A program made the position numbers and the translations under genes. The notes under the pieces were generated by a model. It was not told where the DNA came from. It made no database searches and saw nothing but the letters and a program-made list of their open reading frames with translations. Below, one piece after another: positions 14,358 to 38,575 of a stretch of 38,658 bases of DNA. The DNA is taken from the UHGV virus genome UHGV-0206453. One strand, 5' to 3'. This stretch comes from a virus. Numbering within the stretch: the first letter of the stretch is position 1; the number at the start of each line of letters is the position of its first letter.

Positions 14358-14576
14358 GTGATGGATGATAACGGAAACCAATGGATCAATGTTGAACACC
14401 GGCTACCAGAAAGCAAAGAAGGGATGTGGTCTAAAGAGGTTATAGCTCTTACTGATACTGGTGACGTGTTCAAACTATCATGTATGGGCTCTTACTGGCA
14501 GAGAACCAAGGCATTCATCGATTCAGGAGCAAGCAAGGTTACACACTGGATGCCGCTTAATTACCCAGATGATTAA
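14358..14576 (+). CDS. DUF551-like phage protein
   Basis: 72 aa; WINVEHRLPE ... THWMPL motifs. Confidence 0.6.
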   Translation: MMDDNGNQWINVEHRLPESKEGMWSKEVIALTDTGDVFKLSCMGSYWQRTKAFIDSGASKVTHWMPLNYPDD

Positions 14577-14593
14577 AACGGATGAAAAATGAA

Positions 14594-14618
14594 AGGTCGC
14601 TCAGGCGGCCTTTTTTAT
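14594..14618 (+). terminator. rho-independent terminator
   Basis: Imperfect GC hairpin (AGGTCGC/GCGGCCT) followed by TTTTTTATT. Confidence 0.5.
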
Positions 14619-14723
14619 TGCCATCACAAAAGCCATTCCCTACAGAGTGGCTTTGATAATGGCTTATACCCTACACGGGTTAACTTAACTGATATCCCTT
14701 TTAACGGATAAACGGAGCCAACA

Positions 14724-14873
14724 ATGGCAGAGATTATTCCTATGACTGAAGAACAGAAATTCCAGTTAGAGATTTACAAACTGGTCATGAACCAGAACGC
14801 AGCCGCAGAGGAAGCATTTCAGTTCATTGGCACTGACGAGCTGAAGCTTGAGCTATTCAAAATTCACTTCTAG
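14724..14873 (+). CDS. hypothetical small protein (49 aa)
   Basis: Hand-translated ORF MAEIIPMTEEQKFQLEIYKLVMNQ... with GGAG RBS; in-frame TAG followed by 30 more sense codons. Confidence 0.4.
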   Translation: MAEIIPMTEEQKFQLEIYKLVMNQNAAAEEAFQFIGTDELKLELFKIHF

Positions 14874-14968
14874 TCAGGTGGCGCTAATTCAGATATCACG
14901 ACCCGAACTATCGAAGCGGTGCGTAAATCGAAGGAAGCGTTAGACCTGTTCACTACCGGAGCATAAAC

Positions 14969-15409
14969 ATGGCGCGCCCAACAAAGTATCAAGAGGCGTA
15001 CGCCGAACAGGCACGCAAACTGTGCTTGCTGGGCTACACCGATGCAGAGCTTGCTGATTTCTTCGAAGTCAGTGAGTCAACTATTAACAAGTGGAAGCTT
15101 GATTATCCTAAGTTTTCGGAGTCCATAAAAAAGGGTAAGGCCGTCGCTGATGCAGAAGTTAGTGATCGTCTTTATCAACGCGCTATGGGCTTCGTGGCTC
15201 CAGACATCGATATTCGTGTTATTGAAAACAGAATTGTCGAAACTCCGCTTGAGAAGTATTACCCGCCTGATACAACCGCTGCCATCTTCTGGCTTAAGAA
15301 CCGACAGAAGGATAAATGGCGCGACAAGGTTGATCACGAGCTAACAGGCAAAGACGGCGGCGCAATCCAGATTGAAACATCACCGATGAGCACTCTATTC
15401 GGAAAATGA
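14969..15409 (+). CDS. terminase small subunit
   Basis: 146 aa; HTH-like N-terminus, GGAG RBS, immediately upstream of and overlapping large terminase. Confidence 0.8.
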   Translation: MARPTKYQEAYAEQARKLCLLGYTDAELADFFEVSESTINKWKLDYPKFSESIKKGKAVADAEVSDRLYQRAMGFVAPDIDIRVIENRIVETPLEKYYPPDTTAAIFWLKNRQKDKWRDKVDHELTGKDGGAIQIETSPMSTLFGK

Positions 15410-16821
15410 CCTCGATTAATCCTATCTTTGAACCGTTCATTGAGGCGCATCGCTACAAAGTCGCCAAAGGCGGTCGAGGTAGCGGTAAATCATGGGCAAT
15501 TGCGAGACTGCTTGTTGAAGCGGCGCGTCGGCAGCCGGTGCGTATTCTCTGCGCTCGTGAACTGCAAAACAGTATCAGCGATTCGGTAATCCGGTTGCTT
15601 GAAGACACCATAGAGCGGGAAGGGTATTCGGCTGAGTTTGAAATTCAGCGTTCAATGATTCGTCATCTCGGAACGAATGCTGAATTCATGTTCTACGGCA
15701 TCAAAAACAACCCGACGAAGATTAAATCGCTCGAAGGCATTGATATCTGCTGGGTGGAGGAAGCGGAAGCGGTAACGAAGGAATCATGGGATATCCTGAT
15801 ACCAACCATCCGCAAGCCATTTTCCGAAATATGGGTGAGCTTCAACCCGAAAAACATCCTCGACGATACCTATCAGCGATTCGTAGTAAACCCTCCCGAT
15901 GATATTTGTCTGCTGACGGTGAACTACACCGACAACCCGCACTTTCCTGAAGTTCTCCGTCTGGAGATGGAAGAGTGTAAACGCAGAAACCCGACACTGT
16001 ATCGTCACATCTGGCTTGGTGAGCCGGTAAGCGCAAGTGATATGGCAATCATCAAACGTGAATGGCTTGAAGCTGCAACCGATGCGCACAAGAAACTCGG
16101 ATGGAAAGCGAAAGGCGCTGTTGTTTCTGCACATGACCCGTCAGATACAGGGCCAGATGCTAAAGGTTACGCATCGCGCCACGGTTCGGTAGTTAAGCGC
16201 ATTGCCGAAGGTCTGCTGATGGACATCAACGATGGTGCTGACTGGGCTACTTCGCTGGCGATTGAAGACGGCGCTGACCACTACCTGTGGGATGGTGATG
16301 GTGTTGGTGCTGGGCTACGCAGACAGACAACGGAAGCGTTCTCCGGCAAGAAAATCACCGCCACGATGTTCAAGGGCAGCGAATCGCCATTCGATGAAGA
16401 TGCGCCGTATCAGGCCGGAGCATGGGCTGATGAAGTCGTACAGGGTGACAACGTTCGCACTATTGGCGATGTGTTCCGCAATAAGCGAGCGCAATTCTAT
16501 TACGCACTGGCTGACAGGCTGTATCTGACATATCGGGCGGTTGTTCACGGTGAGTATGCAGACCCCGACGACATGCTGAGCTTCGATAAAGAAGCAATAG
16601 GCGAGAAGATGCTGGAGAAGCTGTTTGCAGAACTTACGCAGATTCAGCGCAAATTCAATAACAACGGGAAGCTGGAGCTAATGACTAAGGTCGAAATGAA
16701 GCAGAAGCTCGGTATTCCATCTCCTAACCTGGCTGATGCGTTGATGATGTGTATGCATTGCCCGGAGTCGGCTGCGCAACCCGACTATTCCAGTTACTCA
16801 ATTCCTTGTGGTGTAGGTTGA
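15406..16821 (+). CDS. terminase large subunit (ATPase/nuclease)
   Basis: 471 aa; Walker A KGGRGSGKS, Walker B ICWVEEAE, nuclease-domain acidic residues. Confidence 0.9.
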   Translation: MTSINPIFEPFIEAHRYKVAKGGRGSGKSWAIARLLVEAARRQPVRILCARELQNSISDSVIRLLEDTIEREGYSAEFEIQRSMIRHLGTNAEFMFYGIKNNPTKIKSLEGIDICWVEEAEAVTKESWDILIPTIRKPFSEIWVSFNPKNILDDTYQRFVVNPPDDICLLTVNYTDNPHFPEVLRLEMEECKRRNPTLYRHIWLGEPVSASDMAIIKREWLEAATDAHKKLGWKAKGAVVSAHDPSDTGPDAKGYASRHGSVVKRIAEGLLMDINDGADWATSLAIEDGADHYLWDGDGVGAGLRRQTTEAFSGKKITATMFKGSESPFDEDAPYQAGAWADEVVQGDNVRTIGDVFRNKRAQFYYALADRLYLTYRAVVHGEYADPDDMLSFDKEAIGEKMLEKLFAELTQIQRKFNNNGKLELMTKVEMKQKLGIPSPNLADALMMCMHCPESAAQPDYSSYSIPCGVG

Positions 16822-16822
16822 T

Positions 16823-19021
16823 ATGGCAGAAAAAAAGATGACTGACTGGCATCGCAAGGTGCTGTGCAACTTTGATAATGCCTGGTCAGCAACGCAGGAT
16901 ATGCGTGAGCAGATTATTGAGGCTCAACGTTTCGTCAGGGTGTCCGGCGCACAGTGGGAAGGCAGCACAAACGCTGGTTACTCATTTGATGAAGGCAGGT
17001 TTGAGCATTATCCGCGTTTTGAACTGAATAAGATTGCCCGTGAATGTGATCGCATCATTGGCGAGTATCGACAGAATCGCATCAGCGTTAAATTCAGGCC
17101 GAAGGACGATAAGGCATCGGAAGCGTTAGCCGAAAAGATGAACGGCAAATTCCGCGCTGACTATCAGGAAACATCCGGTGGCGAAGCGTGTGATAACGCA
17201 TTTGATGATGCTGTAACGGGCGGATTCGGTTGTTTCCGCATGTGTGCCGATTACGAAGATGAAATGGATCCGAGTAACGAGCAGCGCCGCATCAGCCTTC
17301 TTCCTGTTTACGACCCAGCGACATGCGTCTTCTTCGATCAGGACAGCAAGCAATATGACCGCTCTGATGCTATGTGGGCTATGGAAATGTTCTCCATGAC
17401 GCCTAAAGCGTTCGAGGCTGAATACCCTGATTCCATCGCGGCAAGCCTTTCTCGTGATGACACTGGCACTCAATATGACTGGTCAACGCCTGATGCCATC
17501 TATGTTGGACGCTACTACGAAGTTCGCATAGAGAAGGTGAAGCTCACAGCATGGCGTAACCCTGTTAGCGGAGAAACGGCAATCTATGATGAAGAGCAAA
17601 TCAAAGATATTGTTGACGAGCTAACCGATGGTGCATTCGAGCTGATCGGTGAGAGGACAGTGAAGAAACGCAGAGTTTATTGCGGTCTTCTGTCTGGCGC
17701 TGAATGGCTGGAAGAACCGAAGCGTATTCCGGGTGAACATATTCCTCTCATCCCGGTATATGGGCGTCGCTCATTTGTTGATAATCAGGAGCGAATCGAA
17801 GGCCACGCAGCAAAAGCGATGGATGCACAGCGTCTTGAGAACCTGATGGTTTCCATGATTGCAGATAACGCTACTCAGGCTGGCGGTGATGGCATTCCTA
17901 TCGTGGATGTTGATTTCATTCCCGGCCCATTAATGAATCACTGGGCAGAGAGGAATAAGAAAAGACCTGCAGTTCTTCCCATGACCAGCAAGAAGGACAA
18001 AAACGGAACGGTCATTTCAGAGGCTCAGGTTGCTGGCTGGACACCTCCGACACAAATGCCTCCTGCTCTTGCCGGGCTATTGCAGTACACCGGAACGGCT
18101 ATTCAGCAAATTACAGGTGCGTCGCAGCTTGAGAACATGCCGAGCAACGTCGCTACCGATACCGTTGATAGCATCTTTAACCGGATGGACACGCAGTCCT
18201 ATATCTACATGGACAACATGGCTAAATCCATGCGCCGTGCTGGCGTCGTGTGGCTTTCTATGGCTCGTGAAGTCTATGGCAGTGATACGCCGATGCGTAT
18301 CGTTAATGAGGACGGCAGCGATGACGTGGCGCTGATGACTGGTGAAGTGGTTGACCGTCAGACAGGGCAGGTTATCGCGCTTAATGACCTTTCGCAGGGT
18401 AACTATGAAGTGACTGTCGATGTTGGCCAGTCGTTCGCTACTCGCCGTGATGCAACGGTTAAGTCGTTACTTTCCATGCTGGCACTTATCCCACCAGGGA
18501 CTCCGAAGCACGACCTTGTATCGTCGATGATTCTCGACAATATGGACGGCGAAGGGATGGACGACCTGAAAGAATACAACCGCAATCAGTTGCTTCTGTC
18601 TGGCGTTATCAAGCCGAGAACGCCTGAAGAACAGCAAATGGTTGAGCAGGCGAAACAACAACAGGACAGTCAGCCAGATCCGGCTATGGTTGCTGCGCAA
18701 GGTCAGCTTCTTGCTGGTCAGGCTGAATTGCAGAAAGCGCAGAACGAACAAGCAGCCATTCAGGTTAAAGCATTCCAGGCACAGACGGATGCTCAGGTTG
18801 CTGCGGCAAATGTTGTGAAAATCCTCGCATCTGCCGATAGCCAGCAAAAATCTGATATCCGTGAGGCGCTGAAACTGCTCGGACAGTTCCAGCAACAGCA
18901 AGGAGATAATGCCCGTGCTGATGCAGAGCTTGTCCTGAAAAGTCAGGCACAGGGCCATGCGCAGCGCATGGACATCAGCAGCATCCTGCAAAAATCAACT
19001 CAGCAACAACCACAGCAGTAA
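16823..19021 (+). CDS. portal protein (P22 gp1 family)
   Basis: 732 aa; C-terminal segment PDPAMVAAQGQLLAGQAELQKAQNEQ mirrors P22 portal barrel region. Confidence 0.9.
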   Translation: MAEKKMTDWHRKVLCNFDNAWSATQDMREQIIEAQRFVRVSGAQWEGSTNAGYSFDEGRFEHYPRFELNKIARECDRIIGEYRQNRISVKFRPKDDKASEALAEKMNGKFRADYQETSGGEACDNAFDDAVTGGFGCFRMCADYEDEMDPSNEQRRISLLPVYDPATCVFFDQDSKQYDRSDAMWAMEMFSMTPKAFEAEYPDSIAASLSRDDTGTQYDWSTPDAIYVGRYYEVRIEKVKLTAWRNPVSGETAIYDEEQIKDIVDELTDGAFELIGERTVKKRRVYCGLLSGAEWLEEPKRIPGEHIPLIPVYGRRSFVDNQERIEGHAAKAMDAQRLENLMVSMIADNATQAGGDGIPIVDVDFIPGPLMNHWAERNKKRPAVLPMTSKKDKNGTVISEAQVAGWTPPTQMPPALAGLLQYTGTAIQQITGASQLENMPSNVATDTVDSIFNRMDTQSYIYMDNMAKSMRRAGVVWLSMAREVYGSDTPMRIVNEDGSDDVALMTGEVVDRQTGQVIALNDLSQGNYEVTVDVGQSFATRRDATVKSLLSMLALIPPGTPKHDLVSSMILDNMDGEGMDDLKEYNRNQLLLSGVIKPRTPEEQQMVEQAKQQQDSQPDPAMVAAQGQLLAGQAELQKAQNEQAAIQVKAFQAQTDAQVAAANVVKILASADSQQKSDIREALKLLGQFQQQQGDNARADAELVLKSQAQGHAQRMDISSILQKSTQQQPQQ

Positions 19022-19111
19022 TTAACCCATAACGTGCAATGGCTGTCTTTATGAGGCCTGGCACCCTATTGCCTTCCGATGGGCTGAACATCGAGTAAAC
19101 AGGGGTAACAA

Positions 19112-20005
19112 ATGGACCAGATGGCAGAAAACACACCAGAAGTTGAAATCGAAACCGACGCGTCAGAGCAGATTCCTGATGATGTCGAACTGGCTGAAGA
19201 AGTCGAAACAGAAGATGGCAGTGAGTCCTCCGGCAATGATGCAGAGGAAGCTACTGAAACTGATGACGACGAATCAGAACAGGAATTCTACTTTGGTGAC
19301 GAAAAGCTGGATTCGCCAACCAGCGAAGATAGCGCAGAGCATGGACTGGTAAAACACCTGCGCAAGACGATTAAAGAGAAAGATCGCGAGCTGAAAGAGC
19401 TGATGCGTCAGTTTCAGAAACCCGTCGAGCAGCAGCCGGTAATCACTCAACCACCGCGAATGCCAAAACTGGATGATGAGGACATCGGTTTCGATGAAGA
19501 AATCTATCAGCAACGCATGGCTAAGTGGGCAGAGGATAACGGAAAGTACCAGCAACAGGAGATGGCTCGCAAGCAGAAGGAGCAGGAGCTTCAGGCTGCT
19601 TATCAAGAGCGATTATCCAAATATCAGCAACGTGTTAAGGCTCTCAAGGTTCCTGGCTATCAGGAAGCAGAACAGGCCGTACTCGAGGAAATCCCCATCG
19701 AGACACAAAACGCGATCCTGTTTGAGTCAGAGAAGCCGGAAATCGTTGTTCTGGCGCTTGGTCGCAACGCTGAACTGCGCAAGCAACTGGCAGAAGCTAC
19801 CAACCCCGTAGCAATTGGTCGTCTGCTGGAACGTATCGAATCTAAGGCCAGAATCATGCCAAAAGCAAAAACCACGGCAGCCACAACCCCGACAGTTAAG
19901 GGGAGCAACGGCGCAGTAATCAATAACCTCGACAAACTGAAAGCCAAGGCGCTGGAAACTGGTGACTGGACGCCGTATTTCGCCGCTAAAAAGGCAAAAA
20001 AATAA
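19112..20005 (+). CDS. scaffolding protein (P22 gp8-like)
   Basis: 297 aa, acidic N-terminus, coiled-coil-rich, basic C-terminal helix-turn-helix; between portal and coat. Confidence 0.8.
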   Translation: MDQMAENTPEVEIETDASEQIPDDVELAEEVETEDGSESSGNDAEEATETDDDESEQEFYFGDEKLDSPTSEDSAEHGLVKHLRKTIKEKDRELKELMRQFQKPVEQQPVITQPPRMPKLDDEDIGFDEEIYQQRMAKWAEDNGKYQQQEMARKQKEQELQAAYQERLSKYQQRVKALKVPGYQEAEQAVLEEIPIETQNAILFESEKPEIVVLALGRNAELRKQLAEATNPVAIGRLLERIESKARIMPKAKTTAATTPTVKGSNGAVINNLDKLKAKALETGDWTPYFAAKKAKK

Positions 20006-20023
20006 CCTATCGGAGCATTAAGC

Positions 20024-21277
20024 ATGGCTAACCAATTAGCAAAAGACCTTGAAATCATGTTCGAAAACTACGTTGAAGGCTTTGAGGCCGCCTGCGTAGT
20101 TTCCCGTAACGCTAAAAAATTCCGTCCCGGTGATACAGCAATGCAGCGAGCAGGTGATGTTCTGTATCGTCCACAGCATTACCACATGAACATTGAGGAA
20201 GGCCTCGATCTCAGCAGCAAAACGCCAACAGCACTGGTTCAGCGCCTTGTTCCTTCTGTGTTCAAGGAGCCGAAAAACATTCTGTACACTCTGGATGCGC
20301 GTGAAATGCGTGACCCGGAACATAAAACTGAAGCTGGTCGCGCCGCAGGTATGCGCCTTGCTGCACAGATTGACTCTGACCTGATTTCCATGGTCACGCA
20401 GCGTGCTACTAACGTGATCACAATGGCTGACTCAACCACTGGTTCACAGGGCCGTGATTTGTGGAACTGTGCGGCAGGTATTGATGCCACCATGACGGCG
20501 ATTGGTGTACCTCAGGGTATCAACCGTCGCTCTTTCTGGAACCCCTTCAACTACAAAGATCTTGCTGGCGAGCTTGGTCACCGTGCCTATGCTCAGGGAG
20601 CAACCCTGACAGCATACGAAAAAGCGCAGATCCCTCCGGTTGCTTCCTTTGATAGCTACAAGACCGATATTTCTGGTCGATTACCGAAAGGAAGCGCTGA
20701 ATCCTTGACAGTATCAGGCCAACCTGAACACAAGGTTGAAGCGAAAGATTCAAATGGTATGCCAGTTGATAACCGACAGGGGACCATTACGGTATCTGCA
20801 TCTGGCTTGCAGGTTGGTGATGCGTTCACCATTGCCGGTGTGAATTCCGTACACCAGATCACAAAAGATACCACCGGGCAACCGCAGGTATTCCGTGTTC
20901 TGGCTGTTAGCGGAACTACCGTAACAATCTCTCCAAAGATTCTCCCTGTTGAAAATGCCGATGTTGCGAGTCGTCCATATGCAAACGTCGATGCCAAGCC
21001 GGCAGCATCAGCAGCAATCACCATTCTCAACAAGAACGCAGCACCTGCTAACCTGTTCTGGGCTGATGGTTCTGTTGAGCTGATGTACGGCAAACTGGCG
21101 TTCCCGACTGGTCAGGGTCCACAGGTAATGACAGCAACCACCGAGCAGGGCGCTACGCTGATCATGTCTTACGCCTTCGACCACATCAAAGGCGTAACCA
21201 CTGCTCGTTTCACCACTCTGTACGGTTGCTCTGTACTGGTTCCTGAATATACGGGCATCGTTATTGCCGGGCAGTAA
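20024..21277 (+). CDS. major capsid (coat) protein, P22 gp5 family
   Basis: 417 aa; gene order and conserved segments (FWADGS etc.). Confidence 0.85.
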   Translation: MANQLAKDLEIMFENYVEGFEAACVVSRNAKKFRPGDTAMQRAGDVLYRPQHYHMNIEEGLDLSSKTPTALVQRLVPSVFKEPKNILYTLDAREMRDPEHKTEAGRAAGMRLAAQIDSDLISMVTQRATNVITMADSTTGSQGRDLWNCAAGIDATMTAIGVPQGINRRSFWNPFNYKDLAGELGHRAYAQGATLTAYEKAQIPPVASFDSYKTDISGRLPKGSAESLTVSGQPEHKVEAKDSNGMPVDNRQGTITVSASGLQVGDAFTIAGVNSVHQITKDTTGQPQVFRVLAVSGTTVTISPKILPVENADVASRPYANVDAKPAASAAITILNKNAAPANLFWADGSVELMYGKLAFPTGQGPQVMTATTEQGATLIMSYAFDHIKGVTTARFTTLYGCSVLVPEYTGIVIAGQ

Positions 21278-21282
21278 TTTTG

Positions 21283-21307
21283 GTGGGGCTTCGGCCCCAT
21301 TTTTATT
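21283..21307 (+). terminator. rho-independent terminator after coat gene
   Basis: GGGGC-ttcg-GCCCC hairpin followed by ATTTTTATT. Confidence 0.6.
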
Positions 21308-21318
21308 GGGAGAAGACA

Positions 21319-21507
21319 ATGGCACGAACAATGCTCTATAAGCCGGGCAACATGATCACCTGTGGTCAGGTTGCTGTCGATTACATCATTGTTGATGACG
21401 AAGAAGTTAAATCTCACCTGAAAAAAGGCTGGGTAAAAACTCCTGAAGAAACCGCAACGAAGCAAAAAGTGGCTAAGGCGGAAGAAGATGGCGAAAACGA
21501 AGGGTGA
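21319..21507 (+). CDS. hypothetical small protein (62 aa)
   Basis: Internal ATG of ORF 21280..21507 with GGGAGAAG RBS. Confidence 0.45.
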   Translation: MARTMLYKPGNMITCGQVAVDYIIVDDEEVKSHLKKGWVKTPEETATKQKVAKAEEDGENEG

Positions 21508-21949
21508 TCTCGTTCTAAAGGCTTTACGAAAAGCCGGACTGTATTCCAATGCCACGTTGACAGATGCTGACCCTCAGGCAATTGAAGATGCCATTAATGA
21601 CCTCGAAGACATGATGGCAGCATGGCAGGCTAAAGGTATCGAGCTTGGGTATCAGTTTGCTGATACAGAAAACGGCATCATGCCGTTACCTGACGATGAT
21701 TCAGGTATCCCTGCATGGGCAAATGATGGCGTCGCTTTGAAACTCGCTGTGCAAGTGTGCATGGATAACGTCATTCAGCCGTCAGATGCTCTCCTTACCG
21801 CTGCTGACAGTGCATATCAGACAATCTGTATCGCTTTAACCAAAATACCACCACTTGAGCGGCGAAATGACATGCCTCGCGGTAGTGGTAACAAAAGCGC
21901 GTTTACGTGGAATCGGTTTTACATCGAGAAAGATGATCCGAGTACGTGA
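21488..21949 (+). CDS. head-to-tail adaptor (P22 gp4-like)
   Basis: 153 aa; KTKGDLVLKALRKAG...ATLTD...EDMMA resembles P22 gp4. Confidence 0.8.
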   Translation: MAKTKGDLVLKALRKAGLYSNATLTDADPQAIEDAINDLEDMMAAWQAKGIELGYQFADTENGIMPLPDDDSGIPAWANDGVALKLAVQVCMDNVIQPSDALLTAADSAYQTICIALTKIPPLERRNDMPRGSGNKSAFTWNRFYIEKDDPST

Positions 21950-21958
21950 GGTGAATAA

Positions 21959-23377
21959 ATGCCGATTCAGCAACTTCCGCTTATGAAAGGTGTCGGCAAA
22001 GACTTTCGAAACGCCGACTATATCGACTATCTGCCAGTGAATATGTTGGCTACACCCAAAGAAATCCTTAACAGCAGCGGATATCTTCGCTCATTCCCGG
22101 GCATTGCCAAACGTTCTGATGTGAACGGTGCATCTCGCGGCGTCGAGTACAACATGGCGCAGAATGCTGTTTATCGCGTATGTGGTGGCAAGCTGTACAA
22201 AGGAGAAAGCGAGGTCGGTGATGTTGCCGGAAGTGGTCGCGTATCAATGGCGCATGGTCGAACATCTCAGGCGGTAGGCGTTAATGGTCAACTGGTCGAG
22301 TATCGCTATGATGGTACGGTTAAAACAGTCTCAAACTGGCCTACAGACAGCGGATTCACTCAGTATGAGTTAGGTTCAGTCCGCGACATTACACGCTTAC
22401 GTGGGCGTTATGCGTGGTCAAAAGACGGCACGGATTCATGGTTTATCACTGACCTTGAAGACGAATCGCATCCTGACCGTTACAGCGCACAATATCGCGC
22501 AGAATCGCAGCCGGACGGTATCATCGGCATCGGAACATGGCGAGACTTCATCGTCTGCTTTGGTTCATCGACGATTGAATATTTTTCCCTGACTGGGGCA
22601 ACCACCGTTGGTGCCGCTTTGTATGTCGCACAGCCATCACTGATGGTGCAGAAAGGCATTGCCGGGACTTACTGCAAAACGCCATTCGCTGATTCGTATG
22701 CGTTCATCAGCAATCCGGCAACAGGTGCGCCGTCTGTGTATATCATCGGCTCCGGTCAGGTATCACCAATCGCCAGCGCGAGCATTGAGAAAATCCTCCG
22801 CTCCTACACTGCTGATGAACTGGCTGATGGCGTGATGGAGTCTCTGCGATTTGATGCGCATGAGCTGCTGATTATCCACCTTCCGCGCCATGTTCTTGTT
22901 TACGACGCATCTTCAAGTGCCAATGGTCCGCAATGGTGTGTGCTGAAAACAGGCCTGTATGACGATGTGTACCGCGCTATCGACTTCATTTACGAAGGCA
23001 ATCAGATAACGTGCGGCGATAAGCTTGAATCGATGACAGGAAAATTGCAGTTCGATATCAGCAGCCAGTACGACAAGCAACAGGAACACCTGCTGTTTAC
23101 TCCGTTGTTCAAAGCGGATAACGCCAGAGTTTTCGACCTTGAAGTTGAATCGTCAACTGGAGTTGCGCAGTACGCTGACCGCCTGTTCCTCTCTGCAACC
23201 ACTGACGGCATAAATTACGGACGTGAGCAGATGATTGAGCAGAATGAACCGTTCGTTTACGACAAACGCGTTTTGTGGAAGCGTGTCGGGCGAATCAGGA
23301 AAAATGTCGGCTTCAAACTTCGCGTTATCACGAAGTCACCTGTAACTCTGTCTGGCGCTCAGATAAGGATTGAGTAA
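21959..23377 (+). CDS. tail hub protein (P22 gp10-like)
   Basis: 472 aa, same length and position as P22 gp10. Confidence 0.8.
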
Positions 23378-24533: not shown

Positions 24534-24535
24534 CC

Positions 24536-25228
24536 ATGTTATATGCATTTAAACTGGGCAGAAAACTGCGCGGCGAGGAACCTTATTGCCCTGAAAAGGG
24601 TGGGAAAGGTGGCAGTTCTGATAAAAGCGCAAAGTATGCCGCAGAAGCTCAGAAGTATGCAGCAGACCTGCAAAATCAGCAGTGGCAGACGATCATGAAA
24701 AACCTTGCTCCGTTCACGCCTCTTGCGGAGCAGTATGTTAACCAGTTGCAGAATCTTTCCAGTTTAGAAGGTCAGGGGCAGGCACTTAATCAGTATTACA
24801 ACTCTCAGCAGTATAAAGACCTTGCAGGTCAGGCGCGTTACCAGAGTCTTGCTGCTGCGGAGGCGACGGGTGGACTTGGTTCGACAGCCACAAGTAATCA
24901 ACTGGCTACGATCGCGCCGACACTCGGTCAGTCTTGGTTATCAAACCAGATGAGCAATTACAACAATCTGGCAAACGTTGGGCTTGGTGCGCTGCAAGGT
25001 CAGGCAAACGCCGGGCAGACGTACGCCAACAACATGAGCAGCATTGCACAGCAAAGCGCAGCACTTGCCGCTGCTAATGCCAATAAACCATCAAGTCTTC
25101 AGACTGCAATTAGCGGTGGCACGTCTGGTGCGATTGCCGGTGCAGGTCTTGCCAGCCTTTTGGGAACATCAACGCCTTGGGGCGCTGGCATTGGTGCTGG
25201 TATCGGATTGCTTGACTCGTTGTTTTAA
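24536..25228 (+). CDS. ejection protein (P22 gp7-like)
   Basis: 230 aa, Q/N/A-rich low-complexity protein in gp7 position. Confidence 0.7.
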   Translation: MLYAFKLGRKLRGEEPYCPEKGGKGGSSDKSAKYAAEAQKYAADLQNQQWQTIMKNLAPFTPLAEQYVNQLQNLSSLEGQGQALNQYYNSQQYKDLAGQARYQSLAAAEATGGLGSTATSNQLATIAPTLGQSWLSNQMSNYNNLANVGLGALQGQANAGQTYANNMSSIAQQSAALAAANANKPSSLQTAISGGTSGAIAGAGLASLLGTSTPWGAGIGAGIGLLDSLF

Positions 25229-25237
25229 GGGGTAATC

Positions 25238-26533: not shown

Positions 26534-28530
26534 TGGCTAAAGCATGGAAAGATGTTATCGCCTCTCCACAGTATCAGGCGTTAGCACCAGAACAAAAAGC
26601 GCAGGCTCAGGAGCAATACTTCAATGAAGTCGTGGCCCCGCAAGCCGGAGAAAATGCAGAGCAGGCTAAGCAAGCTTTCTATGCTGCCTATCCATTGCCA
26701 TCTGTGCAGCCAGTGGAGACACAACAACCAGAAGCACAGCAACAACCACAGCAAAGTGGATTTATGTCTGATCTTGGTGAAGCCGTGAAAGAAACTGGTC
26801 GCGGACTGGTGCAGGCTGGCGTGAACGTGGCAAACATACCTGCATCAGTTGCCGATGCTGTAACAAGCGCGGCGGCATGGGCTGGCGGTAAACTCGGTAT
26901 TGGCGATGGTACATATCAACCAGCGCCACGAGTAACAACGCAGGGATTAGAGCAGGACTTTGGCCTTCAGCAAGGTGCGCTGACTCCACAAACGACAGAG
27001 GGAAGGGTATTTGCTGAAGCATTGCCTTACCTCACTCCTGCTGGCGTTGAGAGAGCGGCGGTACAGGCACCAACACTTGCTGGTCGAATTACTCAGGGGG
27101 CAACTCGCCTTCTAGCAGAAAACGCAGTTGGATCACTTGCTGCAAATAGTGCGAAAGATGATGCGGAAGCACTCGCCACCGATTTAGGCGTTGGTGTACT
27201 TGCTGGCGGTGCTATTAACGCTGCCGGACGTGGATTAGGTGCAGCTTATCGTGGCGTTCGTGGTGCTATCGCGCCAGAAGCGCAGCAGGCTATCAGATTT
27301 GCAGAGCGTGAAGGAGTTCCTCTGCACACCACAGACCTGTTACAACCGACTTCCCGCATCGGGAAAATGGCGCAAACGACAGCAGAAAATATCCCTCTGG
27401 CTGGAACAAGCGGAATGAGAGCAACGCAACAGGAAGCGAGAAGCCAGTTGGTTCAGAGATTTGCTGATAAATTCGGTGAGTATGATCCAGCGGTTGTTAT
27501 TGACAGCCTTAAAGCGAAAACATCAGGAATTCGTCGCGCCGCCGGCAATCGACTGGAGCAGGTTCAGAATGCTATGGCTGGAGTAAACATTCAGCCTGCG
27601 CGAGCAATTCAGCAGATTGATACAGAAATATCTAACCTGCAGAAGCTTGGTAAGGTTGCTGATAACGAGACTATTTCAAAACTTCAGTCATATCGTGATG
27701 AGCTTGTTCGCAATGCTGGCCCTGATGGTCCGGTAAATCTGGATTTGAAGCAATTAAGCGACCTGCGCAGCCAGTTCAGAATGGACGTGAAGGGTGAGCG
27801 ACCAGTGTTACCAAACCGTTCCGATGCCGCCATTCAGCGCGTTTACAAGGCAATGACTGACGATATCAATGGTGCCATTGGTCAGAATCTTGGCAACGAT
27901 ACTCTCCGTAAATATCAGCAGGCCAATGCCGTCTACGCTGACGAAGCGGCGAAACTAAAGAATACCAGGCTGAAGAATGTTCTCATGAAAGGCGACCTGA
28001 CGCCGGAAGTTGTCAACAACATGCTATTCAGCAAGAACAAATCGGAAATTAAGACGCTGTATAACTCAGTTGGTCGTGTTGGCAGGGCGCAAATGCGCAA
28101 TGGCATCATTGGAAAGGCGATGGAGAAATCAGGTGGTTCCCCTGACCAGTTCCTTCGACAGCTTAACATCCTGCAAGACCAGACTGGCATCACATTTAAA
28201 GGTCAGGATGCTGCTTATCTGAAAGGATTGAAAAACTACCTGCAATCCACGCAGCAGGCTGCAAAAGCGGCAGTAACAACACCAACAGGGCAGCAAACCA
28301 TCCCGTTCATTATCGGATATGGGACGGCAATGAACCCGGCGACAACTGGTGCAGCAGTAAGCTACGGACTTCTTACTCGCGCCTATGAGAGCGAACCATT
28401 CAGAAATGCAATGCTCCGAATGGCAAATACCCCACGCGGATCAACATCGTTTGAGAAAGCCATGCAGCAGGCGCAAAAGGCCATTAACGCCCTGACTCAG
28501 GGTGCCAAGTCTGATGCGTTGTCATGGTAA
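26533..28530 (+). CDS. ejection protein (P22 gp16-like)
   Basis: 665 aa, last gene before tailspike as in P22. Confidence 0.7.
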   Translation: MAKAWKDVIASPQYQALAPEQKAQAQEQYFNEVVAPQAGENAEQAKQAFYAAYPLPSVQPVETQQPEAQQQPQQSGFMSDLGEAVKETGRGLVQAGVNVANIPASVADAVTSAAAWAGGKLGIGDGTYQPAPRVTTQGLEQDFGLQQGALTPQTTEGRVFAEALPYLTPAGVERAAVQAPTLAGRITQGATRLLAENAVGSLAANSAKDDAEALATDLGVGVLAGGAINAAGRGLGAAYRGVRGAIAPEAQQAIRFAEREGVPLHTTDLLQPTSRIGKMAQTTAENIPLAGTSGMRATQQEARSQLVQRFADKFGEYDPAVVIDSLKAKTSGIRRAAGNRLEQVQNAMAGVNIQPARAIQQIDTEISNLQKLGKVADNETISKLQSYRDELVRNAGPDGPVNLDLKQLSDLRSQFRMDVKGERPVLPNRSDAAIQRVYKAMTDDINGAIGQNLGNDTLRKYQQANAVYADEAAKLKNTRLKNVLMKGDLTPEVVNNMLFSKNKSEIKTLYNSVGRVGRAQMRNGIIGKAMEKSGGSPDQFLRQLNILQDQTGITFKGQDAAYLKGLKNYLQSTQQAAKAAVTTPTGQQTIPFIIGYGTAMNPATTGAAVSYGLLTRAYESEPFRNAMLRMANTPRGSTSFEKAMQQAQKAINALTQGAKSDALSW

Positions 28531-28590
28531 TGTAGATGTAAATTACAGTTAAAAATTAAATTGCTATGGAGTTGATTGAGCTTTTTGCTT

Positions 28591-28618
28591 ACATTAATGC
28601 AAATTTCTGCATTAATGT
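28591..28618. promoter_or_regulatory. perfect palindrome ACATTAATGCA-N6-TGCATTAATGT upstream of tailspike
   Basis: 11-bp perfect inverted arms in the AT-rich gp16-tailspike intergenic region; operator-like. Confidence 0.35.
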
Positions 28619-28720
28619 GTGTTTAATATGAATAGAAGATCATTTTTCAAATCAATAGCGTCATTTGTAGCATTAACTCCATTATCTTCTTTATCAAACA
28701 TGTCTAATAGGATTGCACAC

Positions 28721-31099
28721 ATGACTAATATAACACCAAATGTGGTTATAGGAATGCCTTCGCAACTCTTCACTATGGCGCGTTCTTTTAAAGCCGTAGC
28801 CAATGGCAAAATTTATATCGGTAAAATTGATACTGACCCGGTAAATCCTGAAAACCAGATTCAGGTTTATGTAGAGAACGAAGACGGTTCTCACATTCCT
28901 GTTGCACAGCCAATCATCATTAACGCTGGCGGATATCCGGTATATAACGGACAGATTGCCAAATTCGTTACTGTACAGGGCCATTCTATGGCTGTTTATG
29001 ATGCGTATGGTGCACAGCAGTTTTATTTTCCGAATACGCTGAAGTACGATCCAGATCAATTTAGCTACCAACTTTCATCTGCAAATGGTGCATATCTTGT
29101 TGGTTATGCAACGTCAACTGTTGGTGATTCACTTGATGATATTAATAATGGAAAAATAGTTACCAGTTTTGTGTCAGATTTGAATGCTGATAATAGGGAT
29201 ATTATTTTCGGGCAAACAGGTAATGTATATATACCAAGTAATATAACAGTAAGATGCAACCTTCTTCCTGACGATGACGTAACAAAATTAACTGGAGAAG
29301 GAAAAATTCTCACCAGAGATCCATGGGGGAATGAGCACATATTTGATGTTGGATTGGCAACTCATGGCAGTAAATTTACATGCAGTGGTGTTATTAATCA
29401 ACATGCCAGATTGAATGAATTATGTAGAGTTGGAATTGTTGGAGACTCAATCACTGACGGCGCATACGGTGCTGGATGGTCAGCTAATCCAACCGATTCT
29501 AATGGTGACCTATCTTCAACTAACTACGATCACAATAGTAATGGTGGTTCAGGTTCTTGGTTTCGCACATTTACCGACTGGCTTAACCGATTTACTAAAA
29601 ATAGTGCTTACATATTTAAGGCTGAAAACTGCGCATCTTCTGGAAAGCGACTCATTGACGGGTGGGCTAATCGTAACTTCGATCATGGATTTTTCAAAAA
29701 TACAGCATACGGAAATACCGCACCGGATGTGTGTTTTCTTTCAATGGGCGTAAATGATAATGGGCAGATTGATAGCATTGGATTTGATCAGTATCTATAT
29801 CGTTTCGAGCAATTTATTCGCAAAGCTTGGGGTTATGGATGCGCTGTCTGTGTCGTCTCAATGAACCAAAATGGATCACAATGGGGAGCCCTTGAAGCAT
29901 CAATTAAGAAGAGCATTGAAAGATTGATGCCTGCTGTAGAGTTTCTTGACCTATCACAGGCGGTTACAGATATGTACAGAGATGTTGGCAGTCACACTCT
30001 TCAGGAAATAGCTCGTAGACCTACAGATGGGACTTTTGATGCCACGCATTTTGCGCCTCTTGGACACCAATATATTGGTGCTTATGCCGCAAAGGAATTT
30101 ATGCCTTATCGAGTTCATATTGCGAAGAATGGTAACAACTTCGTACCGAATGTTGATAATGATATACAGGCTATCGGTTACCCTTCAGGCGCTATTTACA
30201 GCGTTAGCATGGAGAGATTGAGCGGTAACACATATCTTAATGGAATAACAGGGTGGGGAACGATAAAACCATCATCTGAAAATGTTACTATCCGTTACTT
30301 TATCTGGTGCGATACATCAGATTTATCAATGGTTATTTTCGAGCCTTATAACCCTTCCTATGTTACTGATGGCCGAGCCAACTCATTTTCAGTTATAGAG
30401 CAAGACATTCGTAATGGCGTATATATATCTGGCAACATTGCAAGCAACGGGATTGCGTCATTTACAAACAAGTTGACAACGAGAACAACAACCCTCAAAA
30501 AAGGATTGAATCAGATAGAAGTTATTTATGATGGTTCCCCATCAAAAGTATATCCACCAGGGCTGTTGTTTAGAGGAGATTTGAAAGAGTCATGCTCGCA
30601 AAATGCTTCAGTGTATCTTGCTGAAAATGCAATAAAAGGAGTATATGGGCAGGTAAGGGATAGAGCTGATTTGTTATTGTCGTATGCGGCAGAAACTGCT
30701 AATGATGAATCTCCTGATATGTATGGTGCAACTAAATCACCAAATGTTCAAAATGTTGCTTTATCATCAATTCCTGTTGGCTGCGGAGTGGTTTTTTACT
30801 ATAAACCTTCTTCACAAAGCGGAGTTGTTGCAAAGAGAACTTCAACTGGAATTGAGATTTCAACAATGCTTTTCGGCGAACTAACAGTTGTTGGAACTTT
30901 AACATGTGATGTTACAGGGGAAGTAATGCTCACAGCTAGTTTGAATGGCTTAACTCCCACAATAACAGTTAAGCCAACTACTGGTGCAACTGTTACTAAT
31001 CCTGTTCCCGGTTTCTCTGGTGGAAAAATAGCTCTAATAAACAAAGGAGCAAGTGGAAAAACATTATCTGTGAAATATTCTTCACACTATATTATTTAA
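28721..31099 (+). CDS. tailspike: P22-type head-binding N-domain fused to SGNH/GDSL esterase-type receptor domain
   Basis: Internal ATG of ORF 28619..31099; N-terminus [38 protein letters not shown] matches P22 gp9 head-binding domain; SGNH blocks [21 protein letters not shown]. Confidence 0.85.
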
Positions 31100-31162
31100 A
31101 CAAATACACACAAAGCTTGCACTGAATTGCAAGGCTTTGTGCTATTCGATAGTTAAGGTGGA

Positions 31163-32320
31163 TCACTCCACCTTTTCATCAAGCCAATCCGCCCACCATT
31201 GCATCATTTCTCTGCGCTTATCGAGATACTGAGCATGGTTGTAAATTCCACGTACAGATCCGCCGTTGGCATGTGCCAGTTGCACTTCAATGGCGTCGGC
31301 AGGCCATTCGTGCTCGTTCATAATCGTGCTGAATTCATGCCTGAATCCGTGACCGCTTTCCAGACCCTCATAGCCGATTTGTTTGATCACAAGCAGTACC
31401 GCGTTCTCGCAGATTGGCTTCTTCTTATCGTTGCGCCCGGCAAAAACAAACTCTGATACAGGCTTGGTGATTGAGCTTAGCGTAGTGAGAAGTTCAACTA
31501 CCTGGTCTGACATAGGAACCACATGAATTTTGCGTCCCTTCATCACACTGGCGTCAATGGTGATAATCCTGTTTTCAAAATCGACGTTCTTCCATAGCAT
31601 GGAACGAAGCTCTTTTGTTCTTAGGGCTGTGTAGCGCAAAACTTTAGTCGCAATGAGCGATACGATGCTTCCTGAAAATGTTGCCAGTGCTTTGTTGAAT
31701 GCAGGGATCTGGTCTGCAGGAAGAAACGGGAAGTTCTTCTTGCGGTATCCTTTCATGGCGTCTGCAAGGTCAGGTGCCGGGTTATATTTAGCCCTTCCGG
31801 TGACAATAGCGTAACGGAAAACCTCTCCGCATCTTCTGCGGGCTTTGTTGGCTCGCTCCATTGCACCGCGATCTTCAAATCTGCGGATTACTTCCAGCAG
31901 TTGCATCGGCTCAATATCCTGAATTTCAAGGCCGCCGATGATAGGTAAAATGTCGTCATCAAACATTTTTGCAAGTTCAGTCGCATACCCTACTGACCAT
32001 ACTTGCTTCTTGTGCTCGTACCATTCCTTGTAAATCGCACTAAAGGAATTGTTGTTAGACGAAGCCTTTTTCGCCTTTACCGGATCGATGCCAACCGAGA
32101 TGTCTTTCCTCGCAGTCCATGCTTTATCCCTTGCCTCTTGCAAAGTCATAAGCGGATATTTTCCGACGGTCAGGATTTTCTCCTTACCGTCAATCTTGTA
32201 GCGAAGCTGCCATACCTTTTTCCCGGATACAGGGACATAAAGGTACAGGCCATTACCATCGAGAAGGCGGTATGGTTTTTCTTTCGGCTTTGCTGCTTCA
32301 ATCTGCTTAACGGTGAGCAT
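31163..32320 (-). CDS. int: tyrosine integrase, P4-like family (N-terminal arm-binding domain)
   Basis: ATG at 32320 within ORF 31163..32356 (alternative GTG at 32356); LTVKQIEAAKP N-terminus; catalytic motifs HGFRH, LAHANGGSVRGIYNH. Confidence 0.9.
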   Translation of the reverse strand: MLTVKQIEAAKPKEKPYRLLDGNGLYLYVPVSGKKVWQLRYKIDGKEKILTVGKYPLMTLQEARDKAWTARKDISVGIDPVKAKKASSNNNSFSAIYKEWYEHKKQVWSVGYATELAKMFDDDILPIIGGLEIQDIEPMQLLEVIRRFEDRGAMERANKARRRCGEVFRYAIVTGRAKYNPAPDLADAMKGYRKKNFPFLPADQIPAFNKALATFSGSIVSLIATKVLRYTALRTKELRSMLWKNVDFENRIITIDASVMKGRKIHVVPMSDQVVELLTTLSSITKPVSEFVFAGRNDKKKPICENAVLLVIKQIGYEGLESGHGFRHEFSTIMNEHEWPADAIEVQLAHANGGSVRGIYNHAQYLDKRREMMQWWADWLDEKVE

Positions 32321-32575
32321 GGGTAAAAATCCGGTGGGTAAAATTATTTTATCCACTTTTTACCCGTCACGGAGTGCGGCTGTCAACGATCTGACGCGAA
32401 CCATTACGAACTGTGAATCTACGGAAGGCTTGATATTCAGGGGATTTTGCGGACTGGTACGGATGGGAGCGAACTGATAAATGGTGTCCCCTGCAGACAT
32501 CTACTTGAAGCAGCAGGGGATTGATTGGAATGGTGTTTTTTAGATGTGAGAAATATTTTACCCGCTATTTTACCC
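32321..32575. other. candidate attP: tRNA-Arg-like 3'-end core flanked by repeated TTTTACCC arm-type motifs
   Basis: Plus TGGTGTCCCCTGCAG (about 32482-32496) is the reverse complement of a tRNA 3' acceptor end plus CCA; five TTTTACCC/GGGTAAAA motifs in both orientations. Confidence 0.55.
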
Positions 32576-32770
32576 ATTGGCGCGGCTTAAGAGCTTATTT
32601 TTGAATTCACAATGGTCACGATATAACCATCTTGCTCGCCCGTGGATAACTTTGGCTTTAGGCAGGTCGCCGGACTTAATCCGGTCATAAATGAAGGTTT
32701 TACCGAAGCCAGTATCGGCCATGATGAATTTCAAATCAACCAGTGAATCAGGCTGTAGTTCGTGTTGCAT
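32570..32770 (-). CDS. AlpA-family excisionase/regulator
   Basis: 66 aa; FIMADTGFGKTFIYDRIKSGDLPKAKVIHGRARW typical AlpA/Xis HTH; GGAGA RBS. Confidence 0.75.
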   Translation of the reverse strand: MQHELQPDSLVDLKFIMADTGFGKTFIYDRIKSGDLPKAKVIHGRARWLYRDHCEFKNKLLSRANG

Positions 32771-32802
32771 GAGTGCTATCTCCGAATAGGGAATCGAACC
32801 TG

Positions 32803-32826
32803 CAAATCAGGCAATAAAAAACCGCC
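32803..32826 (-). terminator. rho-independent terminator upstream of alpA-like gene
   Basis: Minus-strand CCGCC-tgat-GGCGG hairpin followed by TTTTTTAT. Confidence 0.5.
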
Positions 32827-32878
32827 ATCAGGCGGCTTGGTGTTCTTTCAGTTCTTCAATTCGAATATTGGTTACGTC

Positions 32879-33178
32879 TTATTCGATGCGCACTCCTGGT
32901 ATTTCGCCTTTTGATATTGCTAAGTCATAAATTTGCGCGGCACTATACCCATCTCTCATCCATGAATCTAAGGCGCTAACAGCCTCGCTACGCTTTTTAT
33001 CTTCTCTCTCATTTTTGATATCAACGAGGACATCAACGCAATTAAGGCAAATGTGGATTTTGTCCTTACATTCGATCATGGCGGCTTTTCCATGATTTCC
33101 GCCACACAGTGAGCATAAATCTTCAGGGTCTGGCTGGTATTTCTGTAACGTTAGAGGGTTGAATGTTGAACAGACCAT
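32879..33178 (-). CDS. hypothetical Cys-rich protein (about 99 aa)
   Basis: Internal ATG of ORF 32879..33190 with GGAG RBS; CxxC...HxC...CxxC pattern suggests zinc binding. Confidence 0.5.
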   Translation of the reverse strand: MVCSTFNPLTLQKYQPDPEDLCSLCGGNHGKAAMIECKDKIHICLNCVDVLVDIKNEREDKKRSEAVSALDSWMRDGYSAAQIYDLAISKGEIPGVRIE

Positions 33179-33190
33179 AATCATCTCCAT

Positions 33191-33214
33191 AAAACAAAAC
33201 TCGCCGTAGCGAGT
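33191..33214 (-). terminator. rho-independent terminator
   Basis: Minus-strand ACTCGC-tacg-GCGAGT hairpin followed by TTTTGTTTT. Confidence 0.45.
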
Positions 33215-33364
33215 TCAGATAAAAGAAATCCCCGTCAGTGCGAGGATTGTTAGTTGCGCTCTGCTGCTGCCTTAGCCATTACCATATCCACCAAACTTCA
33301 CCAGACATGATTCTCGCAATCACTATCATCACCAAAGTGATAATCACAACTTTAACTGGCGGCA

Positions 33365-34147
33365 TCATTCACCATCCTGCTGCGGTGCTGCTGGATATGC
33401 TTTTCTCATCCAATGCGTGGCGTCATGAATAACGAACTGATATTCATCATCAGTAAACATCGAGCCATCCCACTGTAGCCCGTCAAGAACGCCTCTGGAT
33501 GGAGAGAATACCCAGATATCGAAATCGTATTTCTCCGGCATTCGCTCACTACAGCTTATCCAACCATCTGGAATTACCGGAGAGTTGCCACCCTGAACAG
33601 TAGGTATATCCGGACCTTTGCGAATCGCCCTGGCAAGATCGATTTGGTCGTCGTACAACCAGTCACCTGTTTGCGGATGATTGGCTTCTGCCAATTGTGC
33701 AGCCCACTCCAGGCCGTCTTTGTGTCCTTGCAGATAGTCCAGCGGTAACTCATCACTATTACTTACAGGTTCGGCCTGAAGCATGGCGGCGCGATATGCG
33801 TTCCAGCCAACAGCTTTTCCGTGTTCAAACGCGCTGTCAAAGTCATCATCAATTTCCATCGCAGCGGGCACAGATACCGGCGCTGGCGGGGCGGTGTAAA
33901 GCGGCGTTACTTCTCGCAGCGGGTCGGCATAAGCATTGCCACTATCGAAGCTGACGTTGTTTTTTGCGCCGCCGCCTGACAGCAGCCACGCCACCGGCTC
34001 CTGCTCCATGCCAGCCGTCAGCGCTTCCAGTGCGATTTTGAAGATTTGCGCATCGAGTTGCGCTTCTTCAAAATCAGGGTAATGGGTTGTTACCGCAAGA
34101 CGGCGCTCAAGCTTCTCAATCAACTGCTCTTTGGTGAAGGTGCTCAT
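33365..34147 (-). CDS. hypothetical protein with C-terminal DUF551-like domain
   Basis: 260 aa; C-terminus SCSERMPEKYDFDIWVF...ATHWM parallels the DUF551-like ORF at 14358; GAGGA RBS. Confidence 0.6.
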   Translation of the reverse strand: MSTFTKEQLIEKLERRLAVTTHYPDFEEAQLDAQIFKIALEALTAGMEQEPVAWLLSGGGAKNNVSFDSGNAYADPLREVTPLYTAPPAPVSVPAAMEIDDDFDSAFEHGKAVGWNAYRAAMLQAEPVSNSDELPLDYLQGHKDGLEWAAQLAEANHPQTGDWLYDDQIDLARAIRKGPDIPTVQGGNSPVIPDGWISCSERMPEKYDFDIWVFSPSRGVLDGLQWDGSMFTDDEYQFVIHDATHWMRKAYPAAPQQDGE

Positions 34148-38513: not shown

Positions 38514-38575
38514 GGTGTGCTCCTTATTTATTTACACATAACGAAAACGCCTCGAGTGAAGCGTTATTGGTATGC

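Follow-up and report, generated by a model that had tools for sequence, protein, structure and literature searches.

A 38,658-nucleotide stretch of viral DNA, the genome UHGV-0206453 (hereafter the window), was found to encode two proteins with a DUF551 domain. One is a small protein of 71 amino acids encoded in the late region, which consists of the bare domain, and the other is a 260-amino-acid mosaic protein of the EaA type encoded in the early-left region, which carries the domain at its C-terminus. The explanation that we favour, at a probability of about 0.75, is that these are two separately acquired members of one family, the small gene being the cargo of a mobile cassette and the other copy a module of the EaA-type protein; in addition, DUF551 would serve as a recognition module, and the structured RNA leader of the cassette would control the gene behind it.

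It is common for a lambdoid or P22-like phage to carry two DUF551 genes. An earlier note, made from the letters of the window, had pointed out two DUF551-like modules at distant loci, and the finding in that form is already known. It is ordinary because DUF551 is already in Pfam and has already been called a "portable domain" in the literature (PMC10834534), where the domain was noted in an Ea22 variant, in YfdS, and in a MazZ fusion. More interesting than the finding itself are the compact cassette, the combination of a constant backbone with a variable core in the EaA-type protein, and the mechanism proposed below for the leader, which belongs to the int-alpA RNA motif.

Two DUF551 members of separate origin

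Both open reading frames (ORFs) were identified as DUF551 members by Pfam scan. The small ORF, listed with 72 amino acids at 14358..14576 on the plus strand, matched DUF551 (PF04448) over residues 8-70 with an E-value of 9.8e-10 and 39.6 bits. The 260-amino-acid ORF at 33365..34147 on the minus strand matched the same family over residues 195-248 with an E-value of 1.7e-09 and 38.8 bits. Both proteins were thus above the curated gathering score of the family, which is 22 bits. We also built a profile hidden Markov model (HMM) of our own from 74 relatives, excluding the two window sequences, and scanned the window with it in six frames. The small copy was recovered at 3e-32 and the large copy at 6e-13, and there was no third copy in the window, as nothing else scored better than E = 1. 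The pattern that the earlier note had described, W..E(H/R)(L/M)PE ... W ... THWM, was present in both proteins; it reads W-I-N-V-E-H-R-L-P-E ... W ... T-H-W-M in the small one and W-I-S-C-S-E-R-M-P-E ... W ... T-H-W-M in the large one. Furthermore, W9, P17, W47, T62-H63, and W64 are invariant or nearly so across the aligned relatives, and all of them are found in both window proteins. We regard the assignment of both ORFs to DUF551 as practically certain.

The direct similarity between the two copies was weak. BLASTP aligned only the ten residues of THWM..YP (E = 0.029), and the Smith-Waterman score of 42 was matched by 5 of 2000 shuffles. The homology of the copies therefore rests on the profiles, and the relationship suggested in the earlier note stands on that basis and not on a pairwise alignment of the two segments. 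In multiple alignments the two copies were 23-27% identical. At the DNA level no similarity between the two loci was detected, the best match being 11 nucleotides (nt) long with an E-value of 0.13. Outside this genome, both copies have relatives that are much closer. Stand-alone homologues of the small gene in other genera share 74-99% identity with it, and the DUF551 core of the EaA-type protein is identical to cores on other backbones. Because of the low identity, the absence of DNA similarity, and these closer relatives, the two copies are old, distant paralogues that were acquired separately, each with its own module.

A recent duplication or gene conversion within this genome would readily place both copies in one 38.7-kb genome, and two DUF551 genes are also found in Tyrion, in our locus L009, and in 933W. 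However, neither the lack of nucleotide similarity nor the low protein identity agrees with a recent event, and the closest relatives of each copy lie outside this genome; we therefore consider it very improbable. Chance resemblance, that is, Trp and Pro positions coinciding without common ancestry, could draw on the ten-residue BLASTP alignment and the low identity, but it is already refuted by the profile results, since both segments pass the Pfam threshold independently and the profile excluding them finds both and nothing else, while the Smith-Waterman score is rarely reached by shuffles and a small beta domain like the small protein is predicted for the C-terminus of the large one.

The combination of one stand-alone and one long-fusion DUF551 gene was also observed in locus L009 (4001-4216 and 7233-8096) and in Enterobacter phage Tyrion, and tandem DUF551 pairs within one protein were seen in two further proteins (P0203 and P0249 in our set). 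The other phages with two DUF551 genes and the tandem proteins indicate that multiple copies per genome are recurrent.

The family at large was collected with HMMER from 1.84 billion cluster representatives, which gave 749 DUF551 sequences at E<=0.001 (50% clustering). Many of them are bare domains of 60-75 amino acids; in many others, 100-300 amino acids long, the domain is C-terminal, and a few contain it in tandem. The C-terminal modules follow unrelated N-terminal parts. When 79 longer DUF551 proteins were scanned with Pfam, almost no partner domains were found, the Lar restriction-alleviation domain occurring in 2 of them. FG-GAP and glycosyl hydrolase 25 were rejected as partners, being single matches from spurious repeat proteins. 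The AlphaFold2 model of the small protein (71/72 amino acids) had a predicted local distance difference test score (pLDDT) of 89 and consisted of short beta strands and one helix. In a Foldseek search of the viral library BFVD, all structural matches were DUF551 proteins, with a probability of 1.0 and query-normalised template modelling scores (TM-scores) of 0.6-0.88. The domains are mostly acidic, with a median isoelectric point (pI) of 4.97. DUF551 is thus predicted to be a small, mostly acidic beta domain.

Both window copies agree with the Pfam family (PF04448 / InterPro IPR007539), which includes YfdS of the E. coli K-12 prophage CPS-53, in the shared pattern W..[DE]R[LM]PE ... W ... THWMP. 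They also resemble YfdS and most members of the family in being accessory proteins of phages or prophages in which the domain either stands alone or forms the C-terminal end (PMC4776307). YfdS differs from the 71-amino-acid protein in having an N-terminal extension, whereas the window protein is the bare domain; otherwise there is no essential difference. Only the label "DUF551 domain-containing protein" can be transferred from the family to the window genes.

The small gene, its cassette, and the int-alpA leader

The stand-alone DUF551 gene occupies 14361..14576 on the plus strand and encodes 71 amino acids from the ATG at 14361. The earlier note had located the ORF correctly, but it had taken the listed GTG at 14358 as the start, giving 72 amino acids. 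ATG 14361 is the likely start because GAGG at 14352-14355 sits 5 nt upstream of it and because RefSeq annotates the identical gene as 216 nt; such identical genes occur in E. coli RefSeq genomes as "DUF551 domain-containing protein". The ratio of non-synonymous to synonymous substitution rates (dN/dS) of the small gene was 0.07-0.11 when homologues from other phage types were compared, and the synonymous sites were close to saturation. This low ratio indicates that the gene is real and under strong purifying selection.

Directly after the stop codon lies a predicted intrinsic terminator (14591..14619, plus strand), composed of the hairpin GAAAGGUCGC-UCAG-GCGGCCUUUU and a U-rich tail. The predicted folding energy of the hairpin is -18.1 kcal/mol (z=-3.6), which none of 200 shuffles equalled. 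At the other end, a -10-like hexamer TAGAAT was observed at 14270..14275 on the plus strand, 3 nt before the first helix of an int-alpA motif, as a candidate promoter of the gene's own. A generic promoter and terminator scan called neither the hexamer nor the terminator; both calls are based on folding and on comparison across loci. Taken together, these features show the gene to be contained in a cassette of about 340 bp, which comprises the -10-like hexamer, the int-alpA leader, the Shine-Dalgarno (SD) sequence with the ORF, and the intrinsic terminator. Such a delimited mobile unit would ease the cloning and the deletion of the small gene.

The cassette sits in a variable interval between the lysis genes (Rz, followed by a 50-amino-acid ORF) and the genes for DUF2560 and the small terminase. 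We compared this slot across Sf6, Gally, Huey, and BIS08P22. Positions 14267-14622 are missing from Sf6, where the matching stretch holds gp66, and positions 14365-14593 are missing from Gally, which has no annotated gene in its matching stretch. Further upstream in the interval from Rz to DUF2560, Gally carries Rha and BIS08P22 carries KilA-N, and BIS08P22 has an extra 89-amino-acid ORF immediately before its DUF551 gene. A stretch of about 190 nt at 14076-14266 (plus strand), which contains no ORF of more than 50 amino acids and is flanked by the 50-amino-acid ORF after Rz and by the variable slot, is 93-96% conserved in the same four phages.

Subsequently, the surroundings of the cassette were examined at eight loci on contigs that encode close homologues of the 71-amino-acid protein. 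Four contexts were found. The first is the same slot in P22-like prophages with a different terminase type; the second is a phage with a T7-type portal, in which the cassette and the neighbouring genes are on opposite strands; the third is a Paramixta prophage, in which the cassette lies between the terminase genes; and the fourth is a lambdoid prophage, in which it lies just downstream of the Q antiterminator. At all eight loci the int-alpA motif was located 18-20 nt before the DUF551 ORF, and the same terminator hairpin followed the ORF. Leader identity between contexts was 0.71-0.88, and each of the three helices showed compensatory changes. The 100 nt preceding the leader were unrelated between contexts (0.45-0.52 identity). 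Because leader, ORF, and terminator are kept at all loci while the upstream DNA is unrelated, this unit moves as one piece. In this respect the suggestion of the earlier note that a mobile small domain is reused in two contexts was borne out: both copies are DUF551, the cassette occurs in four contexts, and the cores of EaA-type proteins are swapped, as described below.

Among 5426 complete E. coli genomes, the full cassette was found in 29, and about twenty others match over the first 92 nt only. In one of the latter that was examined, SMN013SH2 (1501-1753, compared with 14267-14576 of the window), the 92-nt leader is 100% identical and is followed by an unrelated 52-amino-acid ORF at the same start position. 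This swap suggests that gene exchange occurs right at the junction of the SD sequence and the start codon.

Morons, as reportedly described by Juhala and colleagues in 2000 and by Hendrix and colleagues, are autonomous genes with their own promoter and terminator that lie between conserved genes of the lambdoid late operon. The cassette is moron-like in being a compact gene with its own downstream terminator and a promoter-like -10 hexamer; moreover, the flanking genes enclose other genes in relatives, and the cassette is found at unrelated positions in other phages. Unlike in morons, the promoter is only suggested, with a weak -35, and the structured RNA leader is outside the classical description.

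The leader itself contains the int-alpA RNA motif (RF02996), a three-way junction, at 14279..14341 on the plus strand, where the match reaches 42.0 bits (gathering score 35.8) with an E-value of 3.3e-07 for the local stretch. The leader runs on to 14360, and the motif ends 20 nt before the start codon. Helix P1 is formed by 14280-14286 with 14323-14329, P2 by 14289-14291 with 14297-14299, and P3 by 14305-14308 with 14317-14320, the last enclosing the loop AAUCGUCA (14309-14316). The element has the full set of three helices as well as the invariant junction nucleotides CUAG / CGAAAAG, and the minimum-free-energy fold recovers the three-way junction (z=-2.5). A tRNA-like gene was considered for the leader and rejected, since ARAGORN found none there. 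The motif comes from Weinberg et al. 2017 (PMC5737381), and a search of the literature on int-alpA gave two passing mentions only. In Rfam it is named after the nearby int and alpA genes, whereas the window element lies in the late region before the DUF551 gene.

To survey the motif, we searched IMG/VR with a pattern for the invariant core, which gave 120 loci. Covariation in P1 and P2 was evaluated in 69 distinct sequences and scored 0.474 against 0.107 in shuffled alignments, a value reached by none of 500 shuffles. Ten of 16 counted pairs were changed on both sides, and sliding the partners lowered the paired cells from 89% to 33-48%. P3 was uninformative here because the search pattern fixes it. 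Of 126 instances, 121 had a same-strand ORF of at least 30 amino acids that started within 100 nt, in most cases at a distance of 20-50 nt. The proteins encoded behind the motif fell into 60 unrelated clusters, and DUF551 accounted for 11 of 125 instances. As judged by eye and not by Pfam, the others included GIY-YIG-, HNH-endonuclease-, DUF1376-, ParB-, and Rha-like proteins and many unknowns.

The loop of P3 was then compared with the leader downstream of it. The longest complement averaged 6.04 nt, compared with 3.46 nt in permutations. When one representative was taken for each of 60 distinct loops, for 40 of them a Watson-Crick complement 5 nt or longer was found that overlaps positions -16..-4 relative to the start codon; the permuted controls gave a mean of 6.75 of 60 and a maximum of 14 in 300 trials. 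Two separate complementary sites were found for 29 of the 60 loops (control mean 1.9, maximum 6). In the window, the first site is UGACGA at 14336-14341 (plus strand) and the second, read from the sequence, is GACGAGG at 14349..14355 (plus strand), in which GACGA is fused with the SD sequence GAGG.

From these observations we propose that int-alpA is a cis-acting 5' leader that would control translation of the gene behind it. The P3 loop would pair with the SD region, and the leader would thereby mask or expose the ribosome-binding site of the next gene. We give this proposal even odds. The wider form of it, which we hold slightly less firmly, is that int-alpA may be a widespread modular leader of phage accessory cassettes, working as a loop-SD device, whose conserved sequence would mark the junction at which downstream genes are exchanged; in the window it would gate DUF551, itself possibly a recognition module with a variable surface. 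A motif catalogued without function thereby gains a concrete, testable proposal, loop-SD pairing in cis, with 60 loop variants in front of diverse genes. For loop-pairing mutants, AAUGCACA is an altered form of the P3 loop AAUCGUCA.

An alternative is that int-alpA is an independent trans-acting small RNA (sRNA), a mere neighbour of the DUF551 ORF with no role in its expression. Its class in Rfam, "Gene; sRNA" and not cis-regulator, speaks for this, a -10-like hexamer directly upstream suits a separate RNA gene, and DUF551 follows only a small share of the instances. The label "sRNA" is nevertheless compatible with a cis-acting leader and does not exclude it. Against an independent sRNA stand the nearly constant presence of a same-strand ORF behind the motif, the absence of a terminator between motif and ORF in the window, the covariation of the P3 loop with the downstream SD sequence (40 of 60 loops), and the joint movement of leader, ORF, and terminator. 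An sRNA without a role in the expression of the ORF is accordingly unlikely. Both the cis-acting leader and the sRNA would accommodate a processed RNA that, like P1 c4, additionally works in trans on that same target.

The c4 RNAs of P1 and P7 and the CI RNA of P4 are antisense RNAs, and work on them is cited in PMC8546580. They are cut out of the 5' portion of an operon's transcript and base-pair with sites on that transcript, a ribosome-binding site among them. The window element resembles them in being a compact structured RNA at the 5' end of a phage transcription unit, with a loop complementary to two downstream sites of the same transcript, one of which covers the SD sequence. It is unlike c4 in that the genes it would control are diverse accessory genes and not an antirepressor operon. 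In addition, no match to the Rfam family C4 (RF01695) was found at E<=0.1 in 13900-14700, where int-alpA was the only family reported. The leader may work like c4, by analogy, while not being a member of the C4 family.

As regards the start of transcription, TATAAT-like hexamers (at least 5 of 6 positions) were collected at 105 distinct int-alpA loci. Of the 66 matches, 49 ended 8-19 nt before the C of CUAG, a 12-nt span within the 88 nt scanned, and TAGAAT of the window ends at -11, the modal position of this pile-up.

Several points, apart from the Rfam class, weaken the case for a self-contained, leader-controlled cassette. The set of int-alpA loci came from a strict regular expression applied to one viral collection, and their start codons were assigned by a heuristic. 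No good -35 is present near TAGAAT, so that the promoter is only suggested, and the small gene may just be transcribed as part of the late operon.

The EaA-type protein and the possible role of DUF551

The EaA-type gene (33365..34147, minus strand) encodes a mosaic early-left protein of 260 amino acids with a pI of 4.3 and a net charge of -26. Its DUF551 domain is encoded by 33374..33565 (minus strand) and covers approximately residues 195-258, the range that our own HMM matched, with a core at residues 205-243. The earlier note had rightly placed one gene in the early-left accessory region and one in the late region next to the lysis genes; this gene is in the "ea" region beside xis/int, and the small one comes after Rz. 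More exactly, the EaA-type gene belongs to the distal, non-essential portion of the early-left operon, between the recombination and anti-RecBCD genes and xis/int.

By tblastn, the modules of the protein had separate distributions: residues 1-249 were 66% identical to phi80, residues 116-194 were 95% identical to Salmonella EaA, and residues 180-260 were 90% identical to Stx2 phage 1717. More than 8000 relatives were found, many of them named DUF551 or Eaa. The tblastn matches fall under "EaA protein" features in Salmonella phages, and an "Eaa protein" (P0055 in our set) showed 79% identity over 99% of the query. No full-length counterpart at more than 90% identity was found among these relatives, the best of which showed 86% identity over 100% coverage or 99% over 79%. 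The model of the full-length protein had a mean pLDDT of 47.9. Only the DUF551 part was confident (78-86), with beta strands; an N-terminal helical hairpin was moderately supported, and residues 46-192 were below 50.

In an alignment of 58 relatives, mean identity was 0.82 in the middle module and 0.88 in the first 18 residues of DUF551, compared with 0.22 in the core (205-243). In the 47 proteins with a middle module matching that of the window protein at 90% identity or more, 18 core types of 37-64 residues were observed. All of these cores are framed by GNSPVxPDGWISCSERMPE and THWMxLPxxP. This pattern suggests core swapping at conserved flanks, possibly under diversifying selection. A diversity-generating retroelement was considered and rejected as its source, because the cores differ in length and throughout, the changes are not adenine-directed, and no reverse transcriptase was present among the scanned window proteins.

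The protein shares its early-left "ea" region with P22 EaA and HK620 HkaE; the literature on P22 eaA gave nothing useful. It also resembles the "V2" form of Ea22 of Stx phages, which is a mosaic with a C-terminal DUF551 domain (PMC10834534). Unlike Ea22, it does not have the Ead/Ea22 coiled-coil signature, which is located instead on the product of 34582..35166. This Ead/Ea22-like protein, another mosaic accessory protein, is encoded on the minus strand two genes upstream of the EaA-type gene. Residues 10-91 matched Pfam (E=3.9e-14), and its C-terminal half gave matches to many PHROG families of unknown function.

Because of the acidity of the domain, the hypervariable core on a constant backbone, the promiscuous fusions, the accessory location, and the sparse published genetics of YfdS, we tentatively suggest that DUF551 could be a protein-recognition module in host takeover or counter-defence, although we regard this as possible rather than probable. 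The conserved W, P, and THW residues would form a scaffold presenting a variable surface; the binding target of the domain would be a protein from the host, from one of the host's defence systems, or from a rival element; and phages would use the domain by itself or joined to other modules. The at least 18 swapped EaA cores, set against the stand-alone form under purifying selection, suggest such a module and provide a natural panel of variants for partner screens.

Instead, DUF551 might form a small beta-barrel with nucleic acid or modified ligands as its binding partners, like Tudor, SH3, or Sm/Hfq domains; its target would then be replication or transcription, as in a joint action with YfdQ and YfdR on DnaA-oriC. 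In published genetics, the DUF551 protein YfdS is tied to stress tolerance and, with YfdQR, to inhibition of DnaA-dependent initiation (PMC4776307, PMC10834534). In that work, yfdS or yfdT was required with yfdQR for multicopy inhibition of replication initiation, and only YfdR bound DnaA (PMC4776307). A search for solved structures by sequence gave nothing meaningful, the best E-values being 0.59 and 0.88 for the two window proteins, and no relative of DUF551 was found in the PDB. We consider the nucleic-acid or ligand-binding barrel quite improbable.

The proposal of a protein-recognition module has its own difficulties. Our searches found no partner, structural analogue, or defence-related match for DUF551: the PADLOC defence models did not match either DUF551 protein or four neighbouring early-left proteins, and the PHROGs search gave matches to families of unknown function only. 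The literature gives no mechanism for DUF551 and no biochemical function for any member (PMC10834534, PMC4776307). Moreover, the hypervariability of the EaA cores could reflect relaxed constraint or allele shuffling and not an arms race, and the sample of 58 sequences was picked by similarity to the query. Finally, the two copies may act differently, as the stand-alone form is conserved and not variable.

Genome type and further observations

By its content, the window is the complete genome of a P22-like E. coli phage or prophage of the Sf6/CUS-3 type. Megablast of the window matched P22-like podoviruses (Lederbergvirus), namely CUS-3, Sf6, Kapi1, and HK620-type phages, as well as E. coli prophages, in a mosaic manner at 95-97% identity. 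The ORF map and Pfam showed the usual P22-like layout. Replication and nin genes are followed by the lysis genes up to Rz (13472-13921), then by the small terminase (14969), the large terminase (15406), and the structural genes. The integrase lies at 31163-32356 on the minus strand. The early-left operon, also on the minus strand, encodes a Rad52-like recombinase, SSB, an exonuclease, and the Abc2 anti-RecBCD protein (38073 down to 35980), followed by the accessory "ea" genes.

Between the integrase and the accessory genes, a 66-amino-acid ORF (32570-32770, minus strand) occupies the position of an excisionase and looks AlpA/Xis-like by eye; it had no Pfam match at E<=0.001. The DUF2560 gene (14724-14966, plus strand), a homologue of HK620 hkbM and Sf6 gp67, has an in-frame amber codon at 14871-14873. 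TAG is found here in place of CAG in E. coli A39 and Sf6, and the product would be 49 instead of 80 amino acids long; this is either a nonsense mutation or a sequencing error. In addition, a lambda cIII thermoregulator element (RF01804) was detected by Rfam with 88.5 bits at 38468-38526 on the minus strand, at the promoter-proximal end of the early-left operon.

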